37,204 nt of DNA from a virus. Under the pieces are notes generated by a model, which saw only the letters and a program-made list of their open reading frames with translations, searched no databases and was not told the origin of the DNA. Positions 14,969 to 32,360 of this stretch are shown here, piece by piece (within the stretch, counting starts at the first letter, position 1; the number at the start of each line of letters is the position of its first letter). Position numbers and translations under genes: made by a program. The stretch lies in UHGV virus genome UHGV-0014568; one strand, 5' to 3'.

Positions 14969-15312
14969 ACTATTAATTTCGTTTCATGCCAGCCTTTAGT
15001 CACCCAGCATTGCGAGTCACCATTACACGGGCATGAATTAACTGGAACTCTCTCGCCGCACTTACCGCAACGTTTTCTGCTGATCGATTTTATACGCCCG
15101 CGCACACGTGCATCATCCTGGCGGATCAGCAGCGCGATGTACTCGGCCATTTCATAGGGATCGCGACCAGGGCGCCGGGCGGCGCAGTTCCGCGCCAGCA
15201 TTTCCTGCTCCTGCTTATCCAGCACCAGTTCAATTTTGCGCTCACCGGCGGCGGACTGCCGAGCGCGCTGCGCGGCTTTGCGTTCTGCGGGGGATTTAGC
15301 CACGAACCGCAC
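14965..15312 (-). CDS. Arg-rich protein with C-terminal Cys cluster, unknown function
   Basis: 115-aa ORF (GTG start); C-terminal CGKCG...CPCNG zinc-binding-like motif; start uncertain; overlaps the small ORF 15296..15418. Confidence 0.3.
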   Translation of the reverse strand: MRFVAKSPAERKAAQRARQSAAGERKIELVLDKQEQEMLARNCAARRPGRDPYEMAEYIALLIRQDDARVRGRIKSISRKRCGKCGERVPVNSCPCNGDSQCWVTKGWHETKLIV

Positions 15313-15418
15313 TCCACGCCAGATTGATTAATGACTCCCAGGTAATATAAACCCGGATACCAGCAGCCAGGCCGAAACCAATCACCATGGCATAAAGCAG
15401 AGCGTTGCACTTGTTCAT
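15296..15418 (-). CDS. Possible 40-aa single-pass membrane peptide
   Basis: ATG shares one base with the upstream stop (TGATG); hydrophobic core ALLYAMVIGFGLAAGI; below the ORF-track size cutoff; conflicts with the 115-aa ORF start. Confidence 0.25.
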   Translation of the reverse strand: MNKCNALLYAMVIGFGLAAGIRVYITWESLINLAWSAVRG

Positions 15419-15999
15419 CAGTTCACCTCCTGCGGTGGTTCCGGTAGCGGCATCCAGTGAGTTGAGCTCTCTACTTCGACGCCGTCTTTGTCCACAAAAG
15501 CCATCTTATTCCCGCCACGAGTGGGGCAAAAAACCTTATCCCAAGAACCGGGGAATACATTACCGAGATCATCGAGAAGAATCACATCGCAATATTCAGC
15601 AGGAACTGCATCACTACAGCTTATCCAGCCAGCCGGAGTTACCGGAGGGGTACCCGATAGCGCATTCTGCTCCAGTGATGCTTTTACAAACCACGCTGCC
15701 TGAACTATTACGCCATGAATCCAGCGCAAATCAGCATCGCGATCGTTCTTTTTCATCTTTTCACCACTTAAAGCCTGGCTTATGTGGCTGCATACTAGGT
15801 TTTCATGTAATTCCTTCGCATCCTCAATGGTGAAACCACCAGGTAAACGCCCCGGAGTTACCGGAGAGTTGCCAGCCTTGCGCATGGCAATTTCCACGAT
15901 TTCAACCATATCTTCTGGTGGAATTTTACAATGCTGGCCAATATGCCTCTGCTGTCTGGCATACTCGAGGATGTGCTCCAGCTTGGTTCGATTAATCAT
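15418..15999 (-). CDS. DUF551-like phage protein
   Basis: 193-aa ORF; C-terminal GWISCSDAVPAEYCDVILLDDLGN...THWMPLPEPP matches my recollection of the DUF551 pattern. Confidence 0.45.
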   Translation of the reverse strand: MINRTKLEHILEYARQQRHIGQHCKIPPEDMVEIVEIAMRKAGNSPVTPGRLPGGFTIEDAKELHENLVCSHISQALSGEKMKKNDRDADLRWIHGVIVQAAWFVKASLEQNALSGTPPVTPAGWISCSDAVPAEYCDVILLDDLGNVFPGSWDKVFCPTRGGNKMAFVDKDGVEVESSTHWMPLPEPPQEVN

Positions 16000-16442
16000 G
16001 ATTTATCTCCCTTAAGCATGGCGGCGCGGCAGGCTTCATCAACCATAGCTTCTACGTTTTCGAGAAGTACGTAACTGTACTGCTGCCCGCTAACCCATTC
16101 TTTTCTGCGAGGTAATGCGCGTGGGTCCGCTACAATGGCTCGCAAACGTTCCAGAACAGCTGGTACTGCTGGCGCTGGCGTGGCAGTGTATAGCGCCGTT
16201 GTACCCATCGGCTTATGATTGCATTTCGGGCAAACGTCGTTCTCTCGCCAGTCCTCAATTGTTTCCCACCCGCAGCGACAACATTCGTAACTGATGTAGT
16301 CAGGTTCTGCCTCCAGCGATGCCAGAGCAATCCGTGCCAGCTCTTCCGCTTCTTCTGCTGGCAGTACAACGTTGCTACCAGGTCCGTATGTTTCGCGCCA
16401 CTGCTTGATTGTCAGCAGTCGCTCTTTGGTAATAGTGTTCAT
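15996..16442 (-). CDS. Zinc-ribbon protein, unknown function
   Basis: 148-aa ORF with CCRCG...CPKCNH motif; 4-nt overlaps with both neighbours. Confidence 0.4.
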   Translation of the reverse strand: MNTITKERLLTIKQWRETYGPGSNVVLPAEEAEELARIALASLEAEPDYISYECCRCGWETIEDWRENDVCPKCNHKPMGTTALYTATPAPAVPAVLERLRAIVADPRALPRRKEWVSGQQYSYVLLENVEAMVDEACRAAMLKGDKS

Positions 16443-16804
16443 GCCGTAGCCCCTTCTTGATATTTTTCAAACCAGAACACAACCGGGTCAGATTTCATTT
16501 CAACCAATCCCATACGAACCAGCGCCTTGCCTTTCCCGGACGCAAGGAATTCACGACGACCATCACTGATAATTCGCCGATAATCTTCCAGGCTACTGCA
16601 ATGCTTGTGCAGATTGCATGGGTGGCATGCCGGAACCATGTTGGATATATCGTCACGATCCTGGTGAAGCATATTTCCATCAAAACGAATGACCGGTTTT
16701 ACATGGTCTGCATGCCACTTTTCGCCAAGTTCGCAGCCGCAATAAGCGCAGCGACCACCAAACTTCATGCGCAGCTCTGCACGTTGTTTTTTCGTCAGTG
16801 CCAT
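16439..16804 (-). CDS. HNH endonuclease
   Basis: CAYCGCEL...HADHVKP...CHPCNLHKH motif set; ATG at 16804 with AAGGAAAG RBS preferred over the longer track ORF (start 16894). Confidence 0.7.
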   Translation of the reverse strand: MALTKKQRAELRMKFGGRCAYCGCELGEKWHADHVKPVIRFDGNMLHQDRDDISNMVPACHPCNLHKHCSSLEDYRRIISDGRREFLASGKGKALVRMGLVEMKSDPVVFWFEKYQEGATA

Positions 16805-16805
16805 A

Positions 16806-17024
16806 TCAGCTTTCCTTATATGGATTAATTTTATTGTGCAGTGTGTTGAACGGGGCCCATACCACGTCGTTATACAATTCAATAACTGGCTCAATTATTT
16901 TCCCGATTGCCCAGACAAAAATTAGCAGGGATATCGGTATCATCAACACGACAAACAGAATGAGAAACAGAAATTCTACAGCCCTGTTTTTTCGCGGATA
17001 TTTTTTTCTGAATAATGTGACCAT
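16806..17024 (-). CDS. Small single-pass membrane protein
   Basis: 72-aa ORF; basic N-terminus followed by hydrophobic stretch LFLILFVVLMIPISLLIFVWAIG. Confidence 0.35.
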   Translation of the reverse strand: MVTLFRKKYPRKNRAVEFLFLILFVVLMIPISLLIFVWAIGKIIEPVIELYNDVVWAPFNTLHNKINPYKES

Positions 17025-17157
17025 TCATTACCGCCCTTCCGGGCGGCCTCCTGATGTTCTGAGGGTACAGAAATCCCTCCGGTTAAGGATTTAATAAAAA
17101 TCACTTCTGATTTAAATTTTCAGTGTTTTGTTGTCATGTGGTTTATCGCCTTTATGC

Positions 17158-17463
17158 TTAAGCCTTATTTCTCAGCCATACACAAACAGGACCATCTTCA
17201 GTGTCATGAATGGAACCAATGAACCAGCCTTCACCTTCCGGGCGCTCCGGTTTCCAGGAGGCAATATCGGGACCATCCGCGTCCAGATTAAAATCATCTT
17301 CATCCATAGTTCTGATGGTCCATTGAAGATTATTTTCCTCCATCCATGCGTTAAACTCTTCCGTTGAAATAAGTTCTCTAGCATCACAGAATTTTTCATA
17401 TTCAGGATGCGTCCAGCAGCCATATTCATCACGTACTACTGGTATTTCTCTAATTTCATTCAT
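17158..17463 (-). CDS. Hypothetical acidic protein
   Basis: 101-aa ORF in the nin-like block; overlaps the upstream gene. Confidence 0.4.
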   Translation of the reverse strand: MNEIREIPVVRDEYGCWTHPEYEKFCDARELISTEEFNAWMEENNLQWTIRTMDEDDFNLDADGPDIASWKPERPEGEGWFIGSIHDTEDGPVCVWLRNKA

Positions 17464-17713
17464 TTCTGTTCCTCCACGTTTTCAGACTTTCACCACAGAA
17501 CGGGCAAAAACACATTGCAACACCACGACCGATATATTGGCCGGAGTGAATTTGAGCAATGTCTAAGCCTGGCTCGCCGGTGTTTATATTCACGCGTTCC
17601 GGGATAAATATGCCTTTACTCTTAAAGGTTGGATTTCCATATTCGAGAGATTTTGCCAAAGCCGCGCACGGTTCTATCTTGTTGCCATTAATTTGGCATT
17701 TTGACTCACTCAC
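17456..17713 (-). CDS. Hypothetical Cys-containing small protein
   Basis: 85-aa ORF with CFCPFCGE motif. Confidence 0.4.
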   Translation of the reverse strand: MSESKCQINGNKIEPCAALAKSLEYGNPTFKSKGIFIPERVNINTGEPGLDIAQIHSGQYIGRGVAMCFCPFCGESLKTWRNRNE

Positions 17714-18288
17714 TGGTTGCCTCCTTTGCGAAGCTGGGCGGCGAATTTCTGTGCCTCTTTCTGGATGAATAGCTTTTTGCTGAAGTTATGGTACTGACCG
17801 AACATCTCCACGCCCTGCGCCCGCAGTTCCGACAGGAAAGCGTCGGTGGCTGGGTGCTCTGTCTGGCTATGCATTGCCCATTCAGATAAGTACTCGAAGC
17901 AACGGCGAAACTCCTGCCAATCACTGCACATGTTTAGGTTTCCGCCTTCACACTCGAACTGGTAATTCTCTAAACGGTCTGCAAACGCTCTGCCATTCTC
18001 GATGGCACCAAGTGGAGTTTCAGACTTCAGCCAAGCATTCTCCGCAGCCAGCGCCGAAAACTTCTCGTGTGCCAACTTAACAGCCGCATCAGCCTGCTTA
18101 ATTGACTCAATCGCTTTCTGGTGGTCTTCGGCCAGCGCATTAGCACGCACCAGTTGCACTTCCAGTTGCGTTGCCAAATCGCTGATCAGCTTTGCCACAC
18201 TGCGCATATCAACGGCACCACATTCTGCTTTCAGTTCCGAAGCCATCTCATGCCCGGCGGAAACTAACCCTTTGATATTACTTTCCAT
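17710..18288 (-). CDS. Hypothetical helical protein
   Basis: 192-aa ORF with a helical, coiled-coil-like N-half; no recognised motif. Confidence 0.4.
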   Translation of the reverse strand: MESNIKGLVSAGHEMASELKAECGAVDMRSVAKLISDLATQLEVQLVRANALAEDHQKAIESIKQADAAVKLAHEKFSALAAENAWLKSETPLGAIENGRAFADRLENYQFECEGGNLNMCSDWQEFRRCFEYLSEWAMHSQTEHPATDAFLSELRAQGVEMFGQYHNFSKKLFIQKEAQKFAAQLRKGGNQ

Positions 18289-18811: not shown

Positions 18812-19612
18812 TTACTTGATAAATCCTGACGCCTTTCCCCGCCTGTATTCCTCCATCAGCCACTGCGCCGGTGTTATTCCCCCCAGGGTGGCGGCGTTAG
18901 GCATACACCCGAAACTTCGCCCTGGTGGATGGTAAACGTCTCTCCCTGTGTCCGGAGGCGTACTCATGGGTTCTGGCTTTGCCTGTATGCTGATCACCGG
19001 ATCGGGTATCTGCTGTCCGGAAGCCACCTTTTTCGCCCAATCATCGAGCAGCCTGCGCGCGTGTTTCTCAACCTCAATCTCGCTAAGCTGGCGCTGATAC
19101 ATTGCACGGCGGGTATCACATACGACCCAGTACATAACCGGATGCCGCCACGGGAATCTTTCGGGACCACCAGGATATAAACTTTTTTCCTTGCTGTACC
19201 GGTGAAACTCCGTCATCACATCGTCAATGGTGACGCCAAGAACCATCTTGCTGTCTTTGCACCACTTGATGAATTGCCCTGGCGACGGCCAGAACGGAGA
19301 ATCACTGGCGCGGGCGTGGCGCATACCAGCAGAAACCTGTTCACGGGTTCGGATCCCCCCTTCGGCAAACGCAGCAATCCACTGCTGTTTTGCAGCAACT
19401 TCCTGCTCTGGCGTCTTCAGGTTGGTTACCACTGCCGCCGGAAACAGTTGTTTCAACTGTTTGAAAAGGGCATCAACAAGCCTCTCTGCTGACATGTTCA
19501 CTACGTTGTCATTGTTGGTGTACTGATGCTCATAACCTGACATGCGAGAAAGGGCCTCTCCGTCACGGTTTTGTATTGCGGTAAAAACGTTGTTCACAAG
19601 AAATCCTCCCAT
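18812..19612 (-). CDS. Replication protein P-like helicase loader
   Basis: 266-aa ORF; segment QWIAAFAEGGIRTREQVSAGMRHARASDSPFWPSPGQFIKWCKD parallels lambda P (QWVLAFRENGITTMEQVNAGMRVARRQNRPFLPSPGQFVAWCRE) from memory. Confidence 0.7.
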   Translation of the reverse strand: MGGFLVNNVFTAIQNRDGEALSRMSGYEHQYTNNDNVVNMSAERLVDALFKQLKQLFPAAVVTNLKTPEQEVAAKQQWIAAFAEGGIRTREQVSAGMRHARASDSPFWPSPGQFIKWCKDSKMVLGVTIDDVMTEFHRYSKEKSLYPGGPERFPWRHPVMYWVVCDTRRAMYQRQLSEIEVEKHARRLLDDWAKKVASGQQIPDPVISIQAKPEPMSTPPDTGRDVYHPPGRSFGCMPNAATLGGITPAQWLMEEYRRGKASGFIK

Positions 19613-20457
19613 GCTTCAGGGCTGTTCCAGTGCGGAACGTTGTTATCAGGTAATGTTGATTGCTTCTGTCTGCTAATCTGCAGCCGCCTTGCCAGCTTCT
19701 GCTCCCACTGTGCCTGATGGTATGCCTTACCCTCAGCCATCCAGTAAATTCTGAACTCTGCAAGTTCCTGTGCCGTTGGCAGACTGTCCAGGTAGATCCC
19801 CTGCAATGAGCTTTTCCGAAGAAAGTCATCTGATGGCTGCCATTGTTCATGCATGACAAATTTGCCTAATTGCCCTGGCCCACCAGGAGGAACAAAGTTA
19901 TTCATCACGGCGTTGTTTGCGCCGGGGTCATGAGGCACAGAATTCCCGTTTTTTGTCCTGCTCTCCCTCTCTTGGTTAAATGACTGGTTATATGACTGGT
20001 TCTGGATCCCGTTTTTGGGATCATTCAACATCCCGTTTTTGGGATCATTCAACATCCCGTTTTTGGGATCATTCAACATCCCGTTTTTGGGATCATTCAA
20101 CATCCCGTTTTTGGGTATATTCCCGTTTTCGGTAACATTACCGTTTTCGGGTTCATTACCCCCTTCCCGGTTGCCTTTAATGTTCCCGTTTTTGGTTATA
20201 TTAAGAGAGAAAACCCGCACTCTTTTCGTCGCTCCCTTTCTCTCTCCGGTATCTGAAATAAGCCCCATTTTCATGAGCGATATAAGCCCGGCCTGCACGG
20301 TTTTTTTATTCAGGCAAGTGTCTTTAACGAGGCGTTCTATGCTGGGGTAGCAGAGGTTATATTCATCGGCTCTGTCAGCCATCGAGAGCAGTATGAGCTT
20401 TAATGATGAGCTGCCTGGATCTGTCTCCCAAGCCCAATCTGTTGCATGTCTGCTCAT
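19594..20457 (-). CDS. Replication initiator (O-like position) with DnaT-like C-terminal domain and internal iteron-encoded repeats
   Basis: 287-aa ORF; C-terminal GKFVMHEQWQPSDDF...YWMAEGKAYHQAQWEQKLARRLQ resembles E. coli DnaT; contains GMLNDPKN x4 encoded by the 24-bp iterons; GGAG RBS. Confidence 0.65.
   Translation of the reverse strand: MSRHATDWAWETDPGSSSLKLILLSMADRADEYNLCYPSIERLVKDTCLNKKTVQAGLISLMKMGLISDTGERKGATKRVRVFSLNITKNGNIKGNREGGNEPENGNVTENGNIPKNGMLNDPKNGMLNDPKNGMLNDPKNGMLNDPKNGIQNQSYNQSFNQERESRTKNGNSVPHDPGANNAVMNNFVPPGGPGQLGKFVMHEQWQPSDDFLRKSSLQGIYLDSLPTAQELAEFRIYWMAEGKAYHQAQWEQKLARRLQISRQKQSTLPDNNVPHWNSPEAWEDFL
20006..20101. repeat. Four perfect tandem 24-bp direct repeats (ATCCCGTTTTTGGGATCATTCAAC), probable replication-origin iterons
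   Basis: Exact head-to-tail copies at 20006, 20030, 20054 and 20078, followed by degenerate CCCGTTTT(C/T)GG copies to about 20215 and preceded by a TGACTGGTT x2 repeat; all inside the replication initiator gene. Confidence 0.7.
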
Positions 20458-20472
20458 GATTAATCTCCGCTA

Positions 20473-20673
20473 TCAGCTTGAATGTTGTGGGGAGGAATTA
20501 ATCATGATCTGCTTAATCTCTGCCCTGATGCGACGGTTTGATTCCATGGTGCACTCAACACAGTGTCCGTTGTAAACCCAGCGCTCACTGTCATGTCCGT
20601 GCTTACATGGTTTTCCGGTGTAGTAGCGTTTAAGTCCGCGCTTTGCGGCATCAATACGTGTAATGATTTCCAT
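20473..20673 (-). CDS. Small Cys/His-containing protein at the cII-equivalent position
   Basis: 66 aa from ATG 20673 (track gives TTG 20736); YTGKPCKHGH...NGHCVEC motif; no clear RBS, low confidence. Confidence 0.3.
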   Translation of the reverse strand: MEIITRIDAAKRGLKRYYTGKPCKHGHDSERWVYNGHCVECTMESNRRIRAEIKQIMINSSPQHSS

Positions 20674-28378: not shown

Positions 28379-28676
28379 ATTTAGACCTCGTTATTTTGAA
28401 AATCTGAACGACGTTACCGCGCGTTTTAATAACCGCAGCAAGCATGACAGCGTTGATAATGACCTCAGATAAATCCACAACCATTGGCGTGCGTAACCAG
28501 ATTGCATAAACAACACGAACAGGGATACTGGCCGCTGCAACAATCAGGAAATAAGCAAGCCACCCACCCCATCTCCTGTGTTGAGAACCGTTTCTCCGAA
28601 ATGTGGCAACTCGAACTGCTATACCGGCGCAAATAGCCGCATTGGTGATAAGCAAAAAAAGCTCATGAGTTACCAT
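28368..28676 (-). CDS. Holin (three predicted TM segments)
   Basis: 102-aa ORF immediately upstream of and overlapping the endolysin; three hydrophobic stretches; GGAG RBS. Confidence 0.5.
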
Positions 28677-29067
28677 CGTCTTTTCTCCCCGGAATTAACT
28701 CGCGTGGATTATCGGAACGGTGATAGAGCCAGATTCCAATTCGCACTGCGACGATTGCTGACACAAATGCACCGGCAGAGAAAACAATCCCTTTCTCGAA
28801 AGAATCCTGTGTGATTGTAGGGATCAGGCTGGCTATGCCGATAAGAATTGATGCTGCTGGTTTGTAGAATAGAAGTCCGCATAGAAAGCTAAGCATCGAC
28901 AAAAGCACGCGACGACGAATTGGATACTCTACCGCAGAGGTAACAAAAATTACCGCCCCAGACAAAGACCCCAAAGCAACCTCAGGAGGAACACCGGCCA
29001 CAACCGCAATAAAAGAACTAACACTAAGCCACTGATTTAAAGACTCACTTGTTAGTTGAACTGACAT
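28663..29067 (-). CDS. Multi-pass membrane protein of the lysis cassette (second holin or antiholin candidate)
   Basis: 133 aa from ATG 29067 with GGTGG RBS (track's longer ORF starts at 29157); several hydrophobic segments; overlaps the holin start. Confidence 0.4.
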   Translation of the reverse strand: MSVQLTSESLNQWLSVSSFIAVVAGVPPEVALGSLSGAVIFVTSAVEYPIRRRVLLSMLSFLCGLLFYKPAASILIGIASLIPTITQDSFEKGIVFSAGAFVSAIVAVRIGIWLYHRSDNPRELIPGRKDDGNS

Positions 29068-29168
29068 AAAAACCACCGTTTCATGTGCATGAAGAACCCA
29101 CTTATTTGTGAGTTCATCATACACAATAAACCATATGTGGTTAAACCATAAAGACAACTATCTTGTCT

Positions 29169-31907
29169 TTATTGGATAATATGGAACGAATTTTTAACAT
29201 GAATAGTAGCAGAATTATTACTATTATTAATTAAAGCGATCTTCCCGCCAGAATATCCGGGAACAGCCTGTTGAACAGTTCCGCCAGTAGTGGGTTTAAC
29301 TGTTATTGTAGGTACTGACCCTGCCAGGCCAGCTGTAAGCTTGACCTCACCTGTCACATCGCAAGTCAATGTGCCGACAACAGTAAGAGCGCCGAAAAGC
29401 ATTGTTGAAATCTCAATTCCAGTTGAAGTTCTCTTTGCAACAACTCCGCTTTGTGAAGTAGGTTTATAGTAAAAAATCACTCCACAGCCAACAGGAATTG
29501 ATGATAAAGCAACGTTTTGAACATTTGGTGATTTAGTTGCACCATACATATCAGGAGATTCATCATTAGCAGTTTCTGCCGCATACGACAATAACAAATC
29601 AGCTCTATCCCTTACCTGCCCATATACTCCTTTTATTGCATTTTCAGCAAGATACACTGAAGCGCTTTGCGAGCATGACTCTTTCAAATCTCCTCTAAAC
29701 AACAGCCCTGGTGGATATACTTTTGATGGCGTACCATCGTAAATAATCTCAATCTGATTAAGTCCTTTTTTAAGGGTTCCAAGGTGAGTGGTTAGTTTGT
29801 TTGTAAACGATGAGACGCCATTACTAGCGATATTACCAGAACTAAATGCTGTATTACGGATATCTTGTTGTCGGATAGAGATGGAGTTAGCGCGACCGTT
29901 TGCAACATATGTTGGGTTATACGGCTCAAAAACAACCAATGATATATCAGAAGTTTCACACCAGACAAAATATCGTATGGTTAAATTTTCAGTAGCTGGG
30001 TAAACCACGCCCCAGCCAGTTAGACCATTTAGATACGTGTCTCCACTCAACCGCTCCATACCAACGCTGTACGTGCTACCAGACGGGAAGCCAAATGGCT
30101 GGATATCATTATCAACTGTTGGTACGAAGTTATTCCCTTTTTTCGCAGTGTGGACTCTATACGGCATAACAGCCTTTGCTGCATATGCGCCGATATATTG
30201 ATGGCCCAGAGGAGCAAAATGCGTGCTATCAAAAGTGCCATCTGTCGGGCGCCGAGCAATATCTTCAAGCGTATAGCTTCCGAGGTCTCTGTACATCTCG
30301 GTTACTGGCTGAGAGAGATCGAGGAACTCTACCGCAGGGAACAGGCGTTCAATATGCTTCTTAATTGATGCTTCGAGAGCCGCCCATTGTGAGCCATTCT
30401 GGTTCATTGAAACAACGCAGACGGCACATCCGTAACCCCATGCTTTACGGATAAACTGCTCAAAACGGAATAAATACTGATCGAACCCTAACGTATCAAG
30501 TTGTCCGTTATCGTTAACGCCCATGGATATGAAGCAAACGTCTGGCGGCACGTTTCCGTATGCAGTGTTTTTGAAGAAGCCATGGTCAAAGTTACGATTC
30601 GCCCACCCGTCAATGAGTCGCTTTCCAGAAGATGCGCAGTTTTCAGCCTTAAATATGTAAGCACTATTTTTAGTAAATCGGTTAAGCCAGTCGGTAAATG
30701 TGCGAAACCAAGAACCTGAACCACCATTACTATTGTGATCGTAGTTAGTTGAAGATAGGTCACCATTAGAATCGGTTGGATTAGCTGACCATCCAGCACC
30801 GTATGCGCCGTCAGTGATTGAATCACCAACGATACCAACACGACATAGCGTATTGCGGCGAGCGAACTGGTTTATTACGTTGAATGCAGTGTATTTACTG
30901 CCATGAGTTGCCAATCCAACATCAAATATGTGCTCATTCCCCCATGGATCTCTGGTGAGAATTTTTCCTTCACCGATAAATTTTGTCACATCATCATCTG
31001 GCAGGAAATTGCAGCGTAGCTGAACATCCTTCGGAACATAAATTTGTCCAGTATAAGCGTATACTGCAGCGCGGTTATCTGTCTCGCTATCAATGACTAC
31101 CCCAGGAACATATTTCACGGCTAATGCATCATTGCGATATTTACCGTTGCTTAGCTCTGTCCTTAATACAGCATCACCTACACCTATCCATGCCCCTGGA
31201 CCAACACCACCAGTAGTGGTAGGAGTTGATCCAGGCGGAACTACTTTGGGCAGTGGCCCATCCCATCTGTAGTATTCGCCGTTGCTTTCCCAGAGAAGAA
31301 CATCGTTAAGATAGATGATGGTATTACCCAACTCAAAAGATTTCTTCGTGTTATAGCCATACAATCCATTTTCTAAGGTTTCAATAATGGTGCTAAGTAT
31401 GGTACTAAATTTTGCATAAAGATCATCAGTATATTTTTTTGTAGCAGCATCTTGGGGAAGAGATGGATCACGAAGATTTCTAATATAATTTGAAAGCGCG
31501 TCATAAAAAATTGCTACGTCATTTGGCTTTCTTAAAGCCAACTTATCATTTCTTAATGATTGTTGAATGAGCATAGTAAGTTTATCAAACGCATCCTCAT
31601 GTACCTCAGCGAAGAACTTACCCTGATTACGTAAATCCGTTTCCTGAGTAGCTGGTAGTTCTCGTGATATAGATATCTGATGACCGTTAGCCAACGCCTT
31701 CGAGAGAATTACATTACCGCCGTTGTACCCTCCCGCTCCGGTGACGATGTAATCTGTATCAAGAACCAGTACGTTTATATTCTCGCTAATGTCAACAACC
31801 TGTACTACCAGATCTGATTTTTTGAAGATCCTAAATTTGTAAGGGAATGTCGTCGTAACACCATTGCCAGTGTATTCGTTGTGGTTAACTTCGGTTGAGA
31901 CCGTCAT
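29169..31907 (-). CDS. Tailspike/tail fibre with T7-type N-terminal attachment domain and SGNH (GDSL) esterase domain
   Basis: About 912 aa from ATG 31907 with GGAGA RBS (track ORF starts at 31949); N-terminus VNHNEYTGNGVTTTFPYKF resembles podovirus fibre N-terminal domains; SGNH blocks GDSITDG (Ser codon at 30819-30821), GVNDNG and DSTHF. Confidence 0.7.
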   Translation of the reverse strand: MTVSTEVNHNEYTGNGVTTTFPYKFRIFKKSDLVVQVVDISENINVLVLDTDYIVTGAGGYNGGNVILSKALANGHQISISRELPATQETDLRNQGKFFAEVHEDAFDKLTMLIQQSLRNDKLALRKPNDVAIFYDALSNYIRNLRDPSLPQDAATKKYTDDLYAKFSTILSTIIETLENGLYGYNTKKSFELGNTIIYLNDVLLWESNGEYYRWDGPLPKVVPPGSTPTTTGGVGPGAWIGVGDAVLRTELSNGKYRNDALAVKYVPGVVIDSETDNRAAVYAYTGQIYVPKDVQLRCNFLPDDDVTKFIGEGKILTRDPWGNEHIFDVGLATHGSKYTAFNVINQFARRNTLCRVGIVGDSITDGAYGAGWSANPTDSNGDLSSTNYDHNSNGGSGSWFRTFTDWLNRFTKNSAYIFKAENCASSGKRLIDGWANRNFDHGFFKNTAYGNVPPDVCFISMGVNDNGQLDTLGFDQYLFRFEQFIRKAWGYGCAVCVVSMNQNGSQWAALEASIKKHIERLFPAVEFLDLSQPVTEMYRDLGSYTLEDIARRPTDGTFDSTHFAPLGHQYIGAYAAKAVMPYRVHTAKKGNNFVPTVDNDIQPFGFPSGSTYSVGMERLSGDTYLNGLTGWGVVYPATENLTIRYFVWCETSDISLVVFEPYNPTYVANGRANSISIRQQDIRNTAFSSGNIASNGVSSFTNKLTTHLGTLKKGLNQIEIIYDGTPSKVYPPGLLFRGDLKESCSQSASVYLAENAIKGVYGQVRDRADLLLSYAAETANDESPDMYGATKSPNVQNVALSSIPVGCGVIFYYKPTSQSGVVAKRTSTGIEISTMLFGALTVVGTLTCDVTGEVKLTAGLAGSVPTITVKPTTGGTVQQAVPGYSGGKIALINNSNNSATIHVKNSFHIIQ

Positions 31908-31961
31908 GTTAAATCTCCAGATAGTCGCAGCACCCGTTGCGCCGCACATCCGGTCATTCTA

Positions 31962-32026
31962 TTACCTGAAAAACCACATATGGATAGATAACCCATAAAT
32001 ACGAACAGATATCACCTTTCAGGTAA
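31962..32026. promoter_or_regulatory. Long-range inverted repeat TTACCTGAAA ... TTTCAGGTAA with AACCACATATG motif between tailspike and the LexA-box gene
   Basis: Half-sites at 31962-31971 and 32017-32026 are exact reverse complements, 45 bp apart; AACCACATATG at 31972-31982. Confidence 0.4.
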
Positions 32027-32063
32027 TTCGCAAAACGTGCTGGATAGCAAACAAATTATTTGA

Positions 32064-32083
32064 TACTGTATAAATATACAGTT
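32064..32083 (+). promoter_or_regulatory. LexA (SOS) box overlapping a promoter
   Basis: TACTGTATAAATATACAGTT is a near-match to the LexA consensus TACTGTATATATATACAGTA; TTGATA -35-like hexamer at 32060-32065; 20 nt upstream of the ATG at 32103. Confidence 0.7.
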
Positions 32084-32102
32084 ATTGCATGGAGAAGATA
32101 AG

Positions 32103-32360
32103 ATGCAGCAGTATCACTATCCACTGGAAGACGGATTTACCGAAAGGATTCACACGCCGGGAGGCGTCAGGTCACTGGTGGAGGGATCGCACTTGATGAA
32201 ATTACTCCGGGATCTCGATAAGGATGGATTTAATGTCGATGGCCCACTTGCCGAACTGACTGCACTGATTAACTACGTCACCAGCTCACAGATGTCTATG
32301 CAGGATCTGCAAACACATCTCGACTATTGTGCCGAACAATTGCGAAAACAAACCACATAA
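32103..32360 (+). CDS. Small SOS-regulated protein, candidate antirepressor
   Basis: 85 aa from ATG 32103 with GGAGAAG RBS (track's TTG start at 32085 is less likely); opposite orientation to the flanking virion genes; no family recognised. Confidence 0.5.
   Translation: MQQYHYPLEDGFTERIHTPGGVRSLVEGSHLMKLLRDLDKDGFNVDGPLAELTALINYVTSSQMSMQDLQTHLDYCAEQLRKQTT

Follow-up and report, generated by a model that had tools for sequence, protein, structure and literature searches.

A predicted G7C gp63.1-type deacetylating tailspike in a temperate phage genome related to phiV10 and epsilon15

Tailspikes that deacetylate surface polysaccharides are already known in several phage groups. The closest described one, gp63.1 of phage G7C, strips O-acetyl groups from the O-antigen of Escherichia coli 4s and leaves the backbone untouched; G7C cannot infect without this activity, and hosts deficient in acetylation resist the phage (PMC10743462, PMC6393563, PMC13123978). 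SGNH receptor-binding proteins are reported to be common in prophages (PMC13123978). Deacetylation or activity on p-nitrophenyl acetate has been shown for gp66 of Pectobacterium phage Possum, for the tailspike of Pectobacterium phage PP99 and for SGNH fibres of Klebsiella prophages; these too place an SGNH domain in a receptor-binding protein, but at lower identity to the protein described here, in other hosts and in other virion contexts. We analyzed a stretch of 37,204 nt, UHGV virus genome UHGV-0014568 (the window, meaning this whole stretch), and the tailspike gene that it carries at 29169–31907. This gene codes for the only receptor-binding tailspike of the phage, a temperate podovirus like phiV10 and epsilon15. 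In its four central domains the product belongs, judged by sequence, to the esterase tailspikes of the G7C gp63.1 type. Very probably this spike removes acetyl groups from an O-acetylated surface polysaccharide, likely O-antigen, and leaves the backbone intact.

Central domains and catalytic residues

Amino acids (aa) 190–738 of the tailspike match 4QNL, the solved SGNH esterase tailspike gp63.1 of G7C, with a phmmer E of 9.6e-106. In BLASTP the two proteins are 37% identical across 575 aligned columns (E = 8e-109), and the alignment to 4QNL residues 103–664 is unbroken. The first-pass annotation of this DNA had compared the protein to the G7C tailspike, and the likeness holds up: besides these matches, G7C-specific Pfam domains score above their cut-offs, and the order Tail_spike_N, domain 3, SGNH, galactose-binding-like is collinear with gp63.1. 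The gene and its parts are as follows.

29169–31907, minus strand: tailspike coding sequence, 912 aa plus stop, set from the open reading frame (ORF) list, ribosome-binding site (RBS) and start position
31413–31907, minus strand: particle-binding (tail-hub attachment) domain of the epsilon15 gp20 / phiV10 p25 type, aa 1–165
31173–31355, minus strand: Tail_spike_N (PF18668), aa 185–245, Pfam 68.7 bits against a cut-off of 25
30918–31109, minus strand: G7C gp63.1 'domain 3' (PF21562), aa 267–330, Pfam 97.8 bits against a cut-off of 27
30153–30845, minus strand: SGNH/GDSL esterase domain, aa ~355–585
30807–30827, minus strand: SGNH block I, GDSITDG, aa 361–367, Ser363 the predicted nucleophile
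30621–30632, minus strand: SGNH block II, SSGK, aa 426–429, Gly428 a predicted oxyanion-hole residue
30504–30521, minus strand: SGNH block III, GVNDNG, aa 463–468, Asn465 a predicted oxyanion-hole residue
30216–30230, minus strand: SGNH block V, DSTHF, aa 560–564, Asp560 and His563 predicted catalytic-triad members
29697–30095, minus strand: galactose-binding-domain-like beta-sandwich (PF21988, G7C_GBD), aa 605–737, Pfam 38.2 bits against a cut-off of 27
29172–29693, minus strand: C-terminal beta-sandwich domain, aa 739–912, without a Pfam match, ConA/lectin-like in its modelled fold

The first-pass annotation had proposed an esterase domain at residues around 350–620 with a complete SGNH motif set. 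GDSITDG, GVNDNG and DSTHF were all found where it had placed them, and the block II glycine (SSGK), which it had not listed, is also present; by sequence the full Ser-Gly-Asn-His tetrad and the triad Asp are there. The extent agrees as well, with Pfam matches at aa 359–573 and the alpha/beta region of a structure model at ~355–585. In a conservation alignment of 42 homologues at 27–92% identity, G361, D362, S363, N465, D466 and H563 are invariant (42/42 sequences for G361, D362 and S363), while conservation reaches 90% or more at G428 and D560. The same alignment shows R279, C299, P303, D305, D306, G312 and G314 of domain 3 to be invariant. Sequence matches in the PDB within the Tail_spike_N stretch are to CBA120 TSP1-4 and others, and the G7C_GBD-like domain aligns with 4QNL residues ~514–664. 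A chance origin of the motifs was rejected, given the homology of the surrounding region to gp63.1, an SGNH esterase tailspike of known structure.

The Pfam GDSL matches over aa 359–573 fall below cut-off, at 26.7 against 32.9 bits for PF13472 and 14.6 against 23.6 bits for PF00657. Because even the G7C esterase, whose structure is known, clears one such model by a narrow margin (PF00657, 26.7 against 23.6 bits), we conclude that these models are insensitive for this esterase clade. The sub-threshold scores, for an activity predicted from homology, might instead mean that the SGNH domain does not catalyse anything and acts purely as a module for carbohydrate binding. We find that extremely hard to credit: strict conservation of the catalytic residues down to 27% identity is what selection for catalysis should produce, and catalysis is essential for infection in G7C.

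An AlphaFold2 (AF2) monomer model of the tailspike, built on the homologue alignment without templates, has a mean predicted local distance difference test score (pLDDT) of 80.6 and is confident over aa 260–912; the helical neck, aa 85–184, is poorly defined, as expected of a monomer model for a trimeric stalk. The top Foldseek match of the whole model is 4QNL (E = 9e-69, template-modelling (TM) scores 0.63/0.68, 798 columns). The esterase region is modelled as a three-layer alpha/beta/alpha flavodoxin-like fold with the SGNH blocks at strand ends. Block I lies at the end of strand 355–360 and the start of helix 363–366, Gly428 in the loop following strand 419–423, block III after strand 457–461 at the start of helix 464–473, and block V in the loop ahead of helix 566–580. 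In the model each block is at the canonical strand-end or helix-start site of the SGNH fold. The SGNH fold is also that of the O-acetyltransferases PatB, OatA and AlgX, and an enzyme of that kind would add acetyl groups, not remove them. This has next to no chance of applying here: the tailspike is an extracellular virion protein without an acetyl donor, its closest characterised homologue is an esterase, and the structural neighbours of the model are mostly esterases.

In the C-terminal domain the likeness to G7C is strongly diverged. Pfam found no match in the C-terminal 183 aa, and G7C_C (PF22245) was not detected there. Comparison by hhalign with G7C-type C-termini was weak (P = 0.011) but in register, and BLASTP bridges through homologue P0088 tie the domain weakly to G7C_C. 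A separate AF2 model of aa 735–912 reached a pLDDT of 80 and a predicted TM score (pTM) of 0.78; its first Foldseek match was again 4QNL (E = 2.5e-7, TMq 0.68, 187 columns, 14% identity), followed by CBM66, galectins and legume lectins. In its modelled fold the domain resembles a lectin-like beta-sandwich of the G7C kind. Its strong divergence would suit a domain that sets glycan-binding specificity, which is probably its role. Some low-ranking fold matches are to PL7 alginate lyases, which are beta-jelly-rolls, and to beta-sandwiches associated with GH43; they could be read as a sign that one of the two C-terminal beta-sandwich domains also cleaves the glycan backbone, as lyase or hydrolase. 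Those matches have TM scores of 0.2–0.5 and involve non-catalytic carbohydrate-binding or lectin modules, while by far the best match is the corresponding part of gp63.1, which spares the backbone; a second, backbone-cleaving activity is very improbable. No beta-helix or other depolymerase domain was found in the tailspike by Pfam search, and a beta-helix depolymerase was rejected as a description of it.

Proposed mechanism and substrate

We propose the following course of events. The spike, presumably trimeric by analogy with other tailspikes, would be anchored to the tail hub by aa 1–165, of the epsilon15 gp20 type, and the helical neck, Tail_spike_N and the G7C 'domain 3' would be adaptors that carry the SGNH acetyl-esterase domain. 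It would bind an O-acetylated polysaccharide of the host surface, most likely the O-antigen of lipopolysaccharide, which the beta-sandwich domains at aa 605–737 and 739–912 most likely hold. Residue roles can be assigned because the SGNH mechanism is established: Ser363 would attack the acetyl ester with His563, oriented by Asp560, as general base, and Gly428, Asn465 and the Ser363 backbone NH would form the oxyanion hole. Acetyl groups would be removed and the glycan backbone left intact, the latter because no depolymerase domain was detected and because this is reported for gp63.1. Repeated binding and deacetylation, as described for gp63.1, would commit the virion to the surface until the outer membrane is reached. 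If so, the tailspike determines which strains this temperate phage infects, and the predicted route to resistance is loss of O-antigen acetylation, not of O-antigen itself.

Several points weigh against this proposal. The tailspike misses the Pfam gathering cut-offs for both GDSL models, PF13472 and PF00657. Its activity and its host receptor are read through homology. Triad geometry is judged by superposing the model on 4QNL and by where the blocks fall among its secondary-structure elements; the model is a monomer, and gp63.1 was one row of the alignment from which that model was built. Kinship of the C-terminal domain to G7C_C is one of fold only. Finally, the spike could act on capsule or some other exopolysaccharide, as the SGNH receptor-binding proteins of Klebsiella prophages do. 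Catalytic activity, an O-antigen substrate, the absence of backbone cleavage and a role in adsorption thus all stand as predictions for this protein.

With respect to the last point, the enzyme would be the same and its substrate a capsular (K-antigen) polysaccharide or an exopolysaccharide such as colanic acid or enterobacterial common antigen. The Klebsiella proteins show an association with capsule loci, and esterase activity was demonstrated for two (PMC13123978); moreover, nothing in the sequence points to a particular glycan. However, phiV10 and epsilon15 are O-antigen-specific and carry O-antigen seroconversion genes beside the tailspike, which supports an O-antigen receptor, and O-polysaccharide is the substrate of the characterised homologues, those of G7C and of the Pectobacterium phages Possum and PP99. 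An 89%-identical allele in Enterobacter hormaechei, in addition, adjoins a gtrABC-type cassette. Cassettes of the gtr type modify O-antigen, and because the spike there lies next to gtrA, gtrB and a glucosyltransferase gene, O-antigen is supported as the receptor for the Enterobacter allele group. We consider a capsular or exopolysaccharide substrate unlikely, though it is the only serious alternative to deacetylation of O-antigen.

Attachment domain, gene and genome setting

The N-terminus of the tailspike is 79% identical to epsilon15 gp20 aa 1–163 and ~62% identical to phiV10 p25 over aa 1–223 (p25 aa 1–233), and by reason of these identities it is assigned, at the sequence level, as the Uetakevirus hub-binding domain. 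The DNA is 89% identical to phiV10 over window 31561–32360, and the position of the gene is syntenic with phiV10 and epsilon15. The N-terminus is also 83.6% identical to that of the Kayfunavirus PAS61 tailspike. The first-pass annotation had called this domain T7-type, which survives as a remote link of fold and of intermediate sequence but not as a direct one. Foldseek matched the domain to 8ck1_B, 7ey9_a and 8dsp_E, the last two of which were confirmed as T7 gp17 (7ey9_a at E = 7.4e-5, TMt 0.51), and aa 1–163 align with aa 1–155 of homologue P0064 (BLASTP E = 2e-22), which passes PF03906 at 41.5 bits. Pfam gave no PF03906 match in the tailspike itself at E ≤ 10, and BLASTP against T7 gp17 gave none either (best E = 1.8). 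Direct sequence kinship of the N-terminus to T7 gp17 was dropped, both tests being negative.

The minus-strand ORF at 29169–31949 is intact, with 926 aa counted from its first in-frame ATG in the ORF list. We place the start at the ATG at 31907 (MTVSTEV...), which has a GGAG Shine-Dalgarno sequence upstream and is where the homologues in phiV10 and epsilon15 also begin; it was chosen, too, by independent gene calls on the ENA metagenome contigs that encode an identical 912-aa protein. The ATG at 31949 lies 14 codons ahead (31908–31949); it is probably not the start, because it has no obvious RBS and is unused in homologues. The protein matches PHROG tail-fibre families (E = 2e-168). That the gene is a pseudogene was rejected, since its reading frame is unbroken and recurs without change on several contigs. 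A promoter and terminator scan found no promoters around the gene above shuffled expectation.

The window is collinear with phiV10 (Uetakevirus) at ~96% DNA identity. Its last and first bases adjoin on phiV10 (14684 and 14683), and for this reason it looks like a circularly permuted but complete phiV10-like phage genome of ~37.2 kb, not a fragment. Two further features define the setting of the tailspike gene.

29146–31560, no strand assigned: module-exchange segment, no DNA similarity to phiV10 by blastn
28663–29067, minus strand: 134-aa membrane protein, Phage_holin_8 (PF16931, E = 3.8e-10), homologue of phiV10 p27 and epsilon15 gp23

The exchanged segment has a GC content of 0.39–0.46, against ~0.50 elsewhere in the window, and stands in place of the distal part of the phiV10 tail fibre together with oac. 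In phiV10, oac is annotated as an O-acetyltransferase that acetylates O-antigen for superinfection immunity; no homologue of it was found anywhere in the window (tblastn E > 5). From the tailspike stop to the Phage_holin_8 gene, which opens the lysis cassette, there are only 101 nt (29068–29168), and the lysis genes follow. That gene marks the far edge of what may be called a seroconversion slot. Whereas phiV10 and epsilon15 keep seroconversion genes beside the spike, namely oac in phiV10 (L001 9522–10709) and gp21/gp22, conversion genes for an O-antigen polymerase and a polymerase inhibitor, in epsilon15 (L018 5231–6824), the slot in the window is empty. The tailspike stop is followed at once, where the exchanged segment ends, by a short hairpin (AAGACAA-GATAG-TTGTCTT, then TAT, at 29146–29168) that could be a weak terminator or the remnant of a recombination junction.

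The locus shows a tailspike and its neighbouring seroconversion gene exchanged together, and this joint replacement of the distal tail fibre and an O-acetyltransferase gene by a predicted deacetylating spike is of mild interest. One could go further and suppose that the esterase spike and the loss of oac travel as a single cassette, in a phage specialised on acetylated O-antigen, including that of lysogens carrying oac, and countering superinfection exclusion by acetylation. The empty slot would then be an adaptive consequence and not an accident. We regard this as quite a long shot.

Elsewhere the window departs from phiV10 in several places. At ~32358–32360, about 1 kb of phiV10 (19531–20542) is absent, comprising p23, a gene for an antirepressor-like Bro-N domain protein, together with the small ORF p22 and a terminator; related E. 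coli prophages with another allele of the spike, P0062, retain a Bro-N gene at that position (L010 3523–4233). A block of the early region, 15303–18130, has no DNA similarity to phiV10; its products include a DUF551 protein (15418–15999) and an HNH endonuclease (16439–16894), and several of its ORFs have no match in Pfam. Amid a structural region 94–98% identical to phiV10, 1400–1730 and 2299–2982 fail to align; these gaps, around the p17/p18 internal-virion/'head protein' genes, suggest local mosaicism.

Distribution of the module and comparison with known systems

Identical copies of the protein occur on ENA metagenome contigs of 37–43 kb. In E. coli, P0001 (912 aa) is 92% identical and shares the whole domain layout; the prophages that encode it are integrated and phiV10-like. 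P0062 represents a second esterase allele, 52% identical in the esterase part, on the same anchor and likewise without oac, on at least 21 E. coli contigs, and the esterase module is found on other E. coli Uetakevirus prophages as well. A DNA search of 5,426 complete E. coli genomes found no near-identical copies; four of the genomes gave DNA matches at 82–85% identity, and the one context examined was a P22-like prophage. Integrated relatives (L007 10856–14739, L010 9915–12745) end right after Rz, with host genes alongside for a DUF5384 protein, a glycine-zipper lipoprotein, a DUF2633 protein and a MASE1-EAL protein. Because these relatives end after Rz beside the same host genes, an E. coli attachment site common to these Uetakevirus prophages is indicated.

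The module also travels on other anchors. Over aa ~212–911, which take in the esterase and both beta-sandwiches, copies at 82–92% identity are found in Kagunavirus siphophages and in prophage proteins of E. coli and E. hormaechei (P0001, P0004 and P0025 among them). The Kagunavirus phages Shashou, Sciku, Schulenburg and Snoke have the same esterase/lectin module behind an N-terminal anchor suited to a siphovirus tail tip, and siphovirus-type prophages of E. hormaechei carry the 89%-identical allele. Remoter copies bear P22 head-binding (PF09008), T7-tail (PF03906) or tail-collar (PF12571) N-termini, and the Pectobacterium N4-like phages CB1, CB3, CB4 and Nepra match at 33–34% identity over aa 190–904. 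Altogether the same esterase module occurs on five other attachment architectures: P22-type, T7-type, tail-collar, siphovirus and N4-like.

Two of these relatives deserve separate mention. The Shashou spike (L002 3719–6091, MK931440.1), 83% identical to the window module over aa 212–911, is annotated 'tailspike endosialidase'; the label looks wrong and probably derives from N-terminal similarity to K1-type phages. In the E. hormaechei locus a gtrA/gtrB/Glucos_trans_II cassette lies directly downstream of the 89%-identical spike gene and convergent with it (L014 7413–10131, GCA_054068375.1), a pairing of a predicted deacetylating spike with a glucosylating seroconversion system. For annotation more generally, the Pfam GDSL models miss the clade at their curated thresholds, and close relatives in GenBank are mislabelled, as with 'endosialidase'.

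The locus is another clear case of one esterase receptor-binding module moving among epsilon15-like, P22-like, T7-like and N4-like phages and siphoviruses. It leaves current understanding unchanged, because deacetylating spikes of the G7C type and prophage SGNH receptor-binding proteins are already documented. With phiV10 and epsilon15 the window has the genome backbone and the N-terminal domain of the spike in common, but there is no relation between the distal spike parts: that of epsilon15 gp20 includes a right-handed beta-helix, and none was detected here. A separate protruding esterase 'petal', of another architecture, is reported for the epsilon15 spike in a 2026 preprint. With G7C it is the central part of the spike that compares, and the virion and life style that differ. 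G7C is a virulent N4-like phage and this one a temperate Uetakevirus; gp63.1 attaches through a second fibre, gp66, whereas the present spike bears its own epsilon15-type hub-binding domain, and neither the ORF list nor the contig gene calls show a gp66-like gene adjacent to it. At 37% identity to gp63.1 its glycan specificity presumably differs. What sets it apart from the G7C type, then, is a direct epsilon15-type anchor, a divergent C-terminal domain and a temperate phage to carry it.

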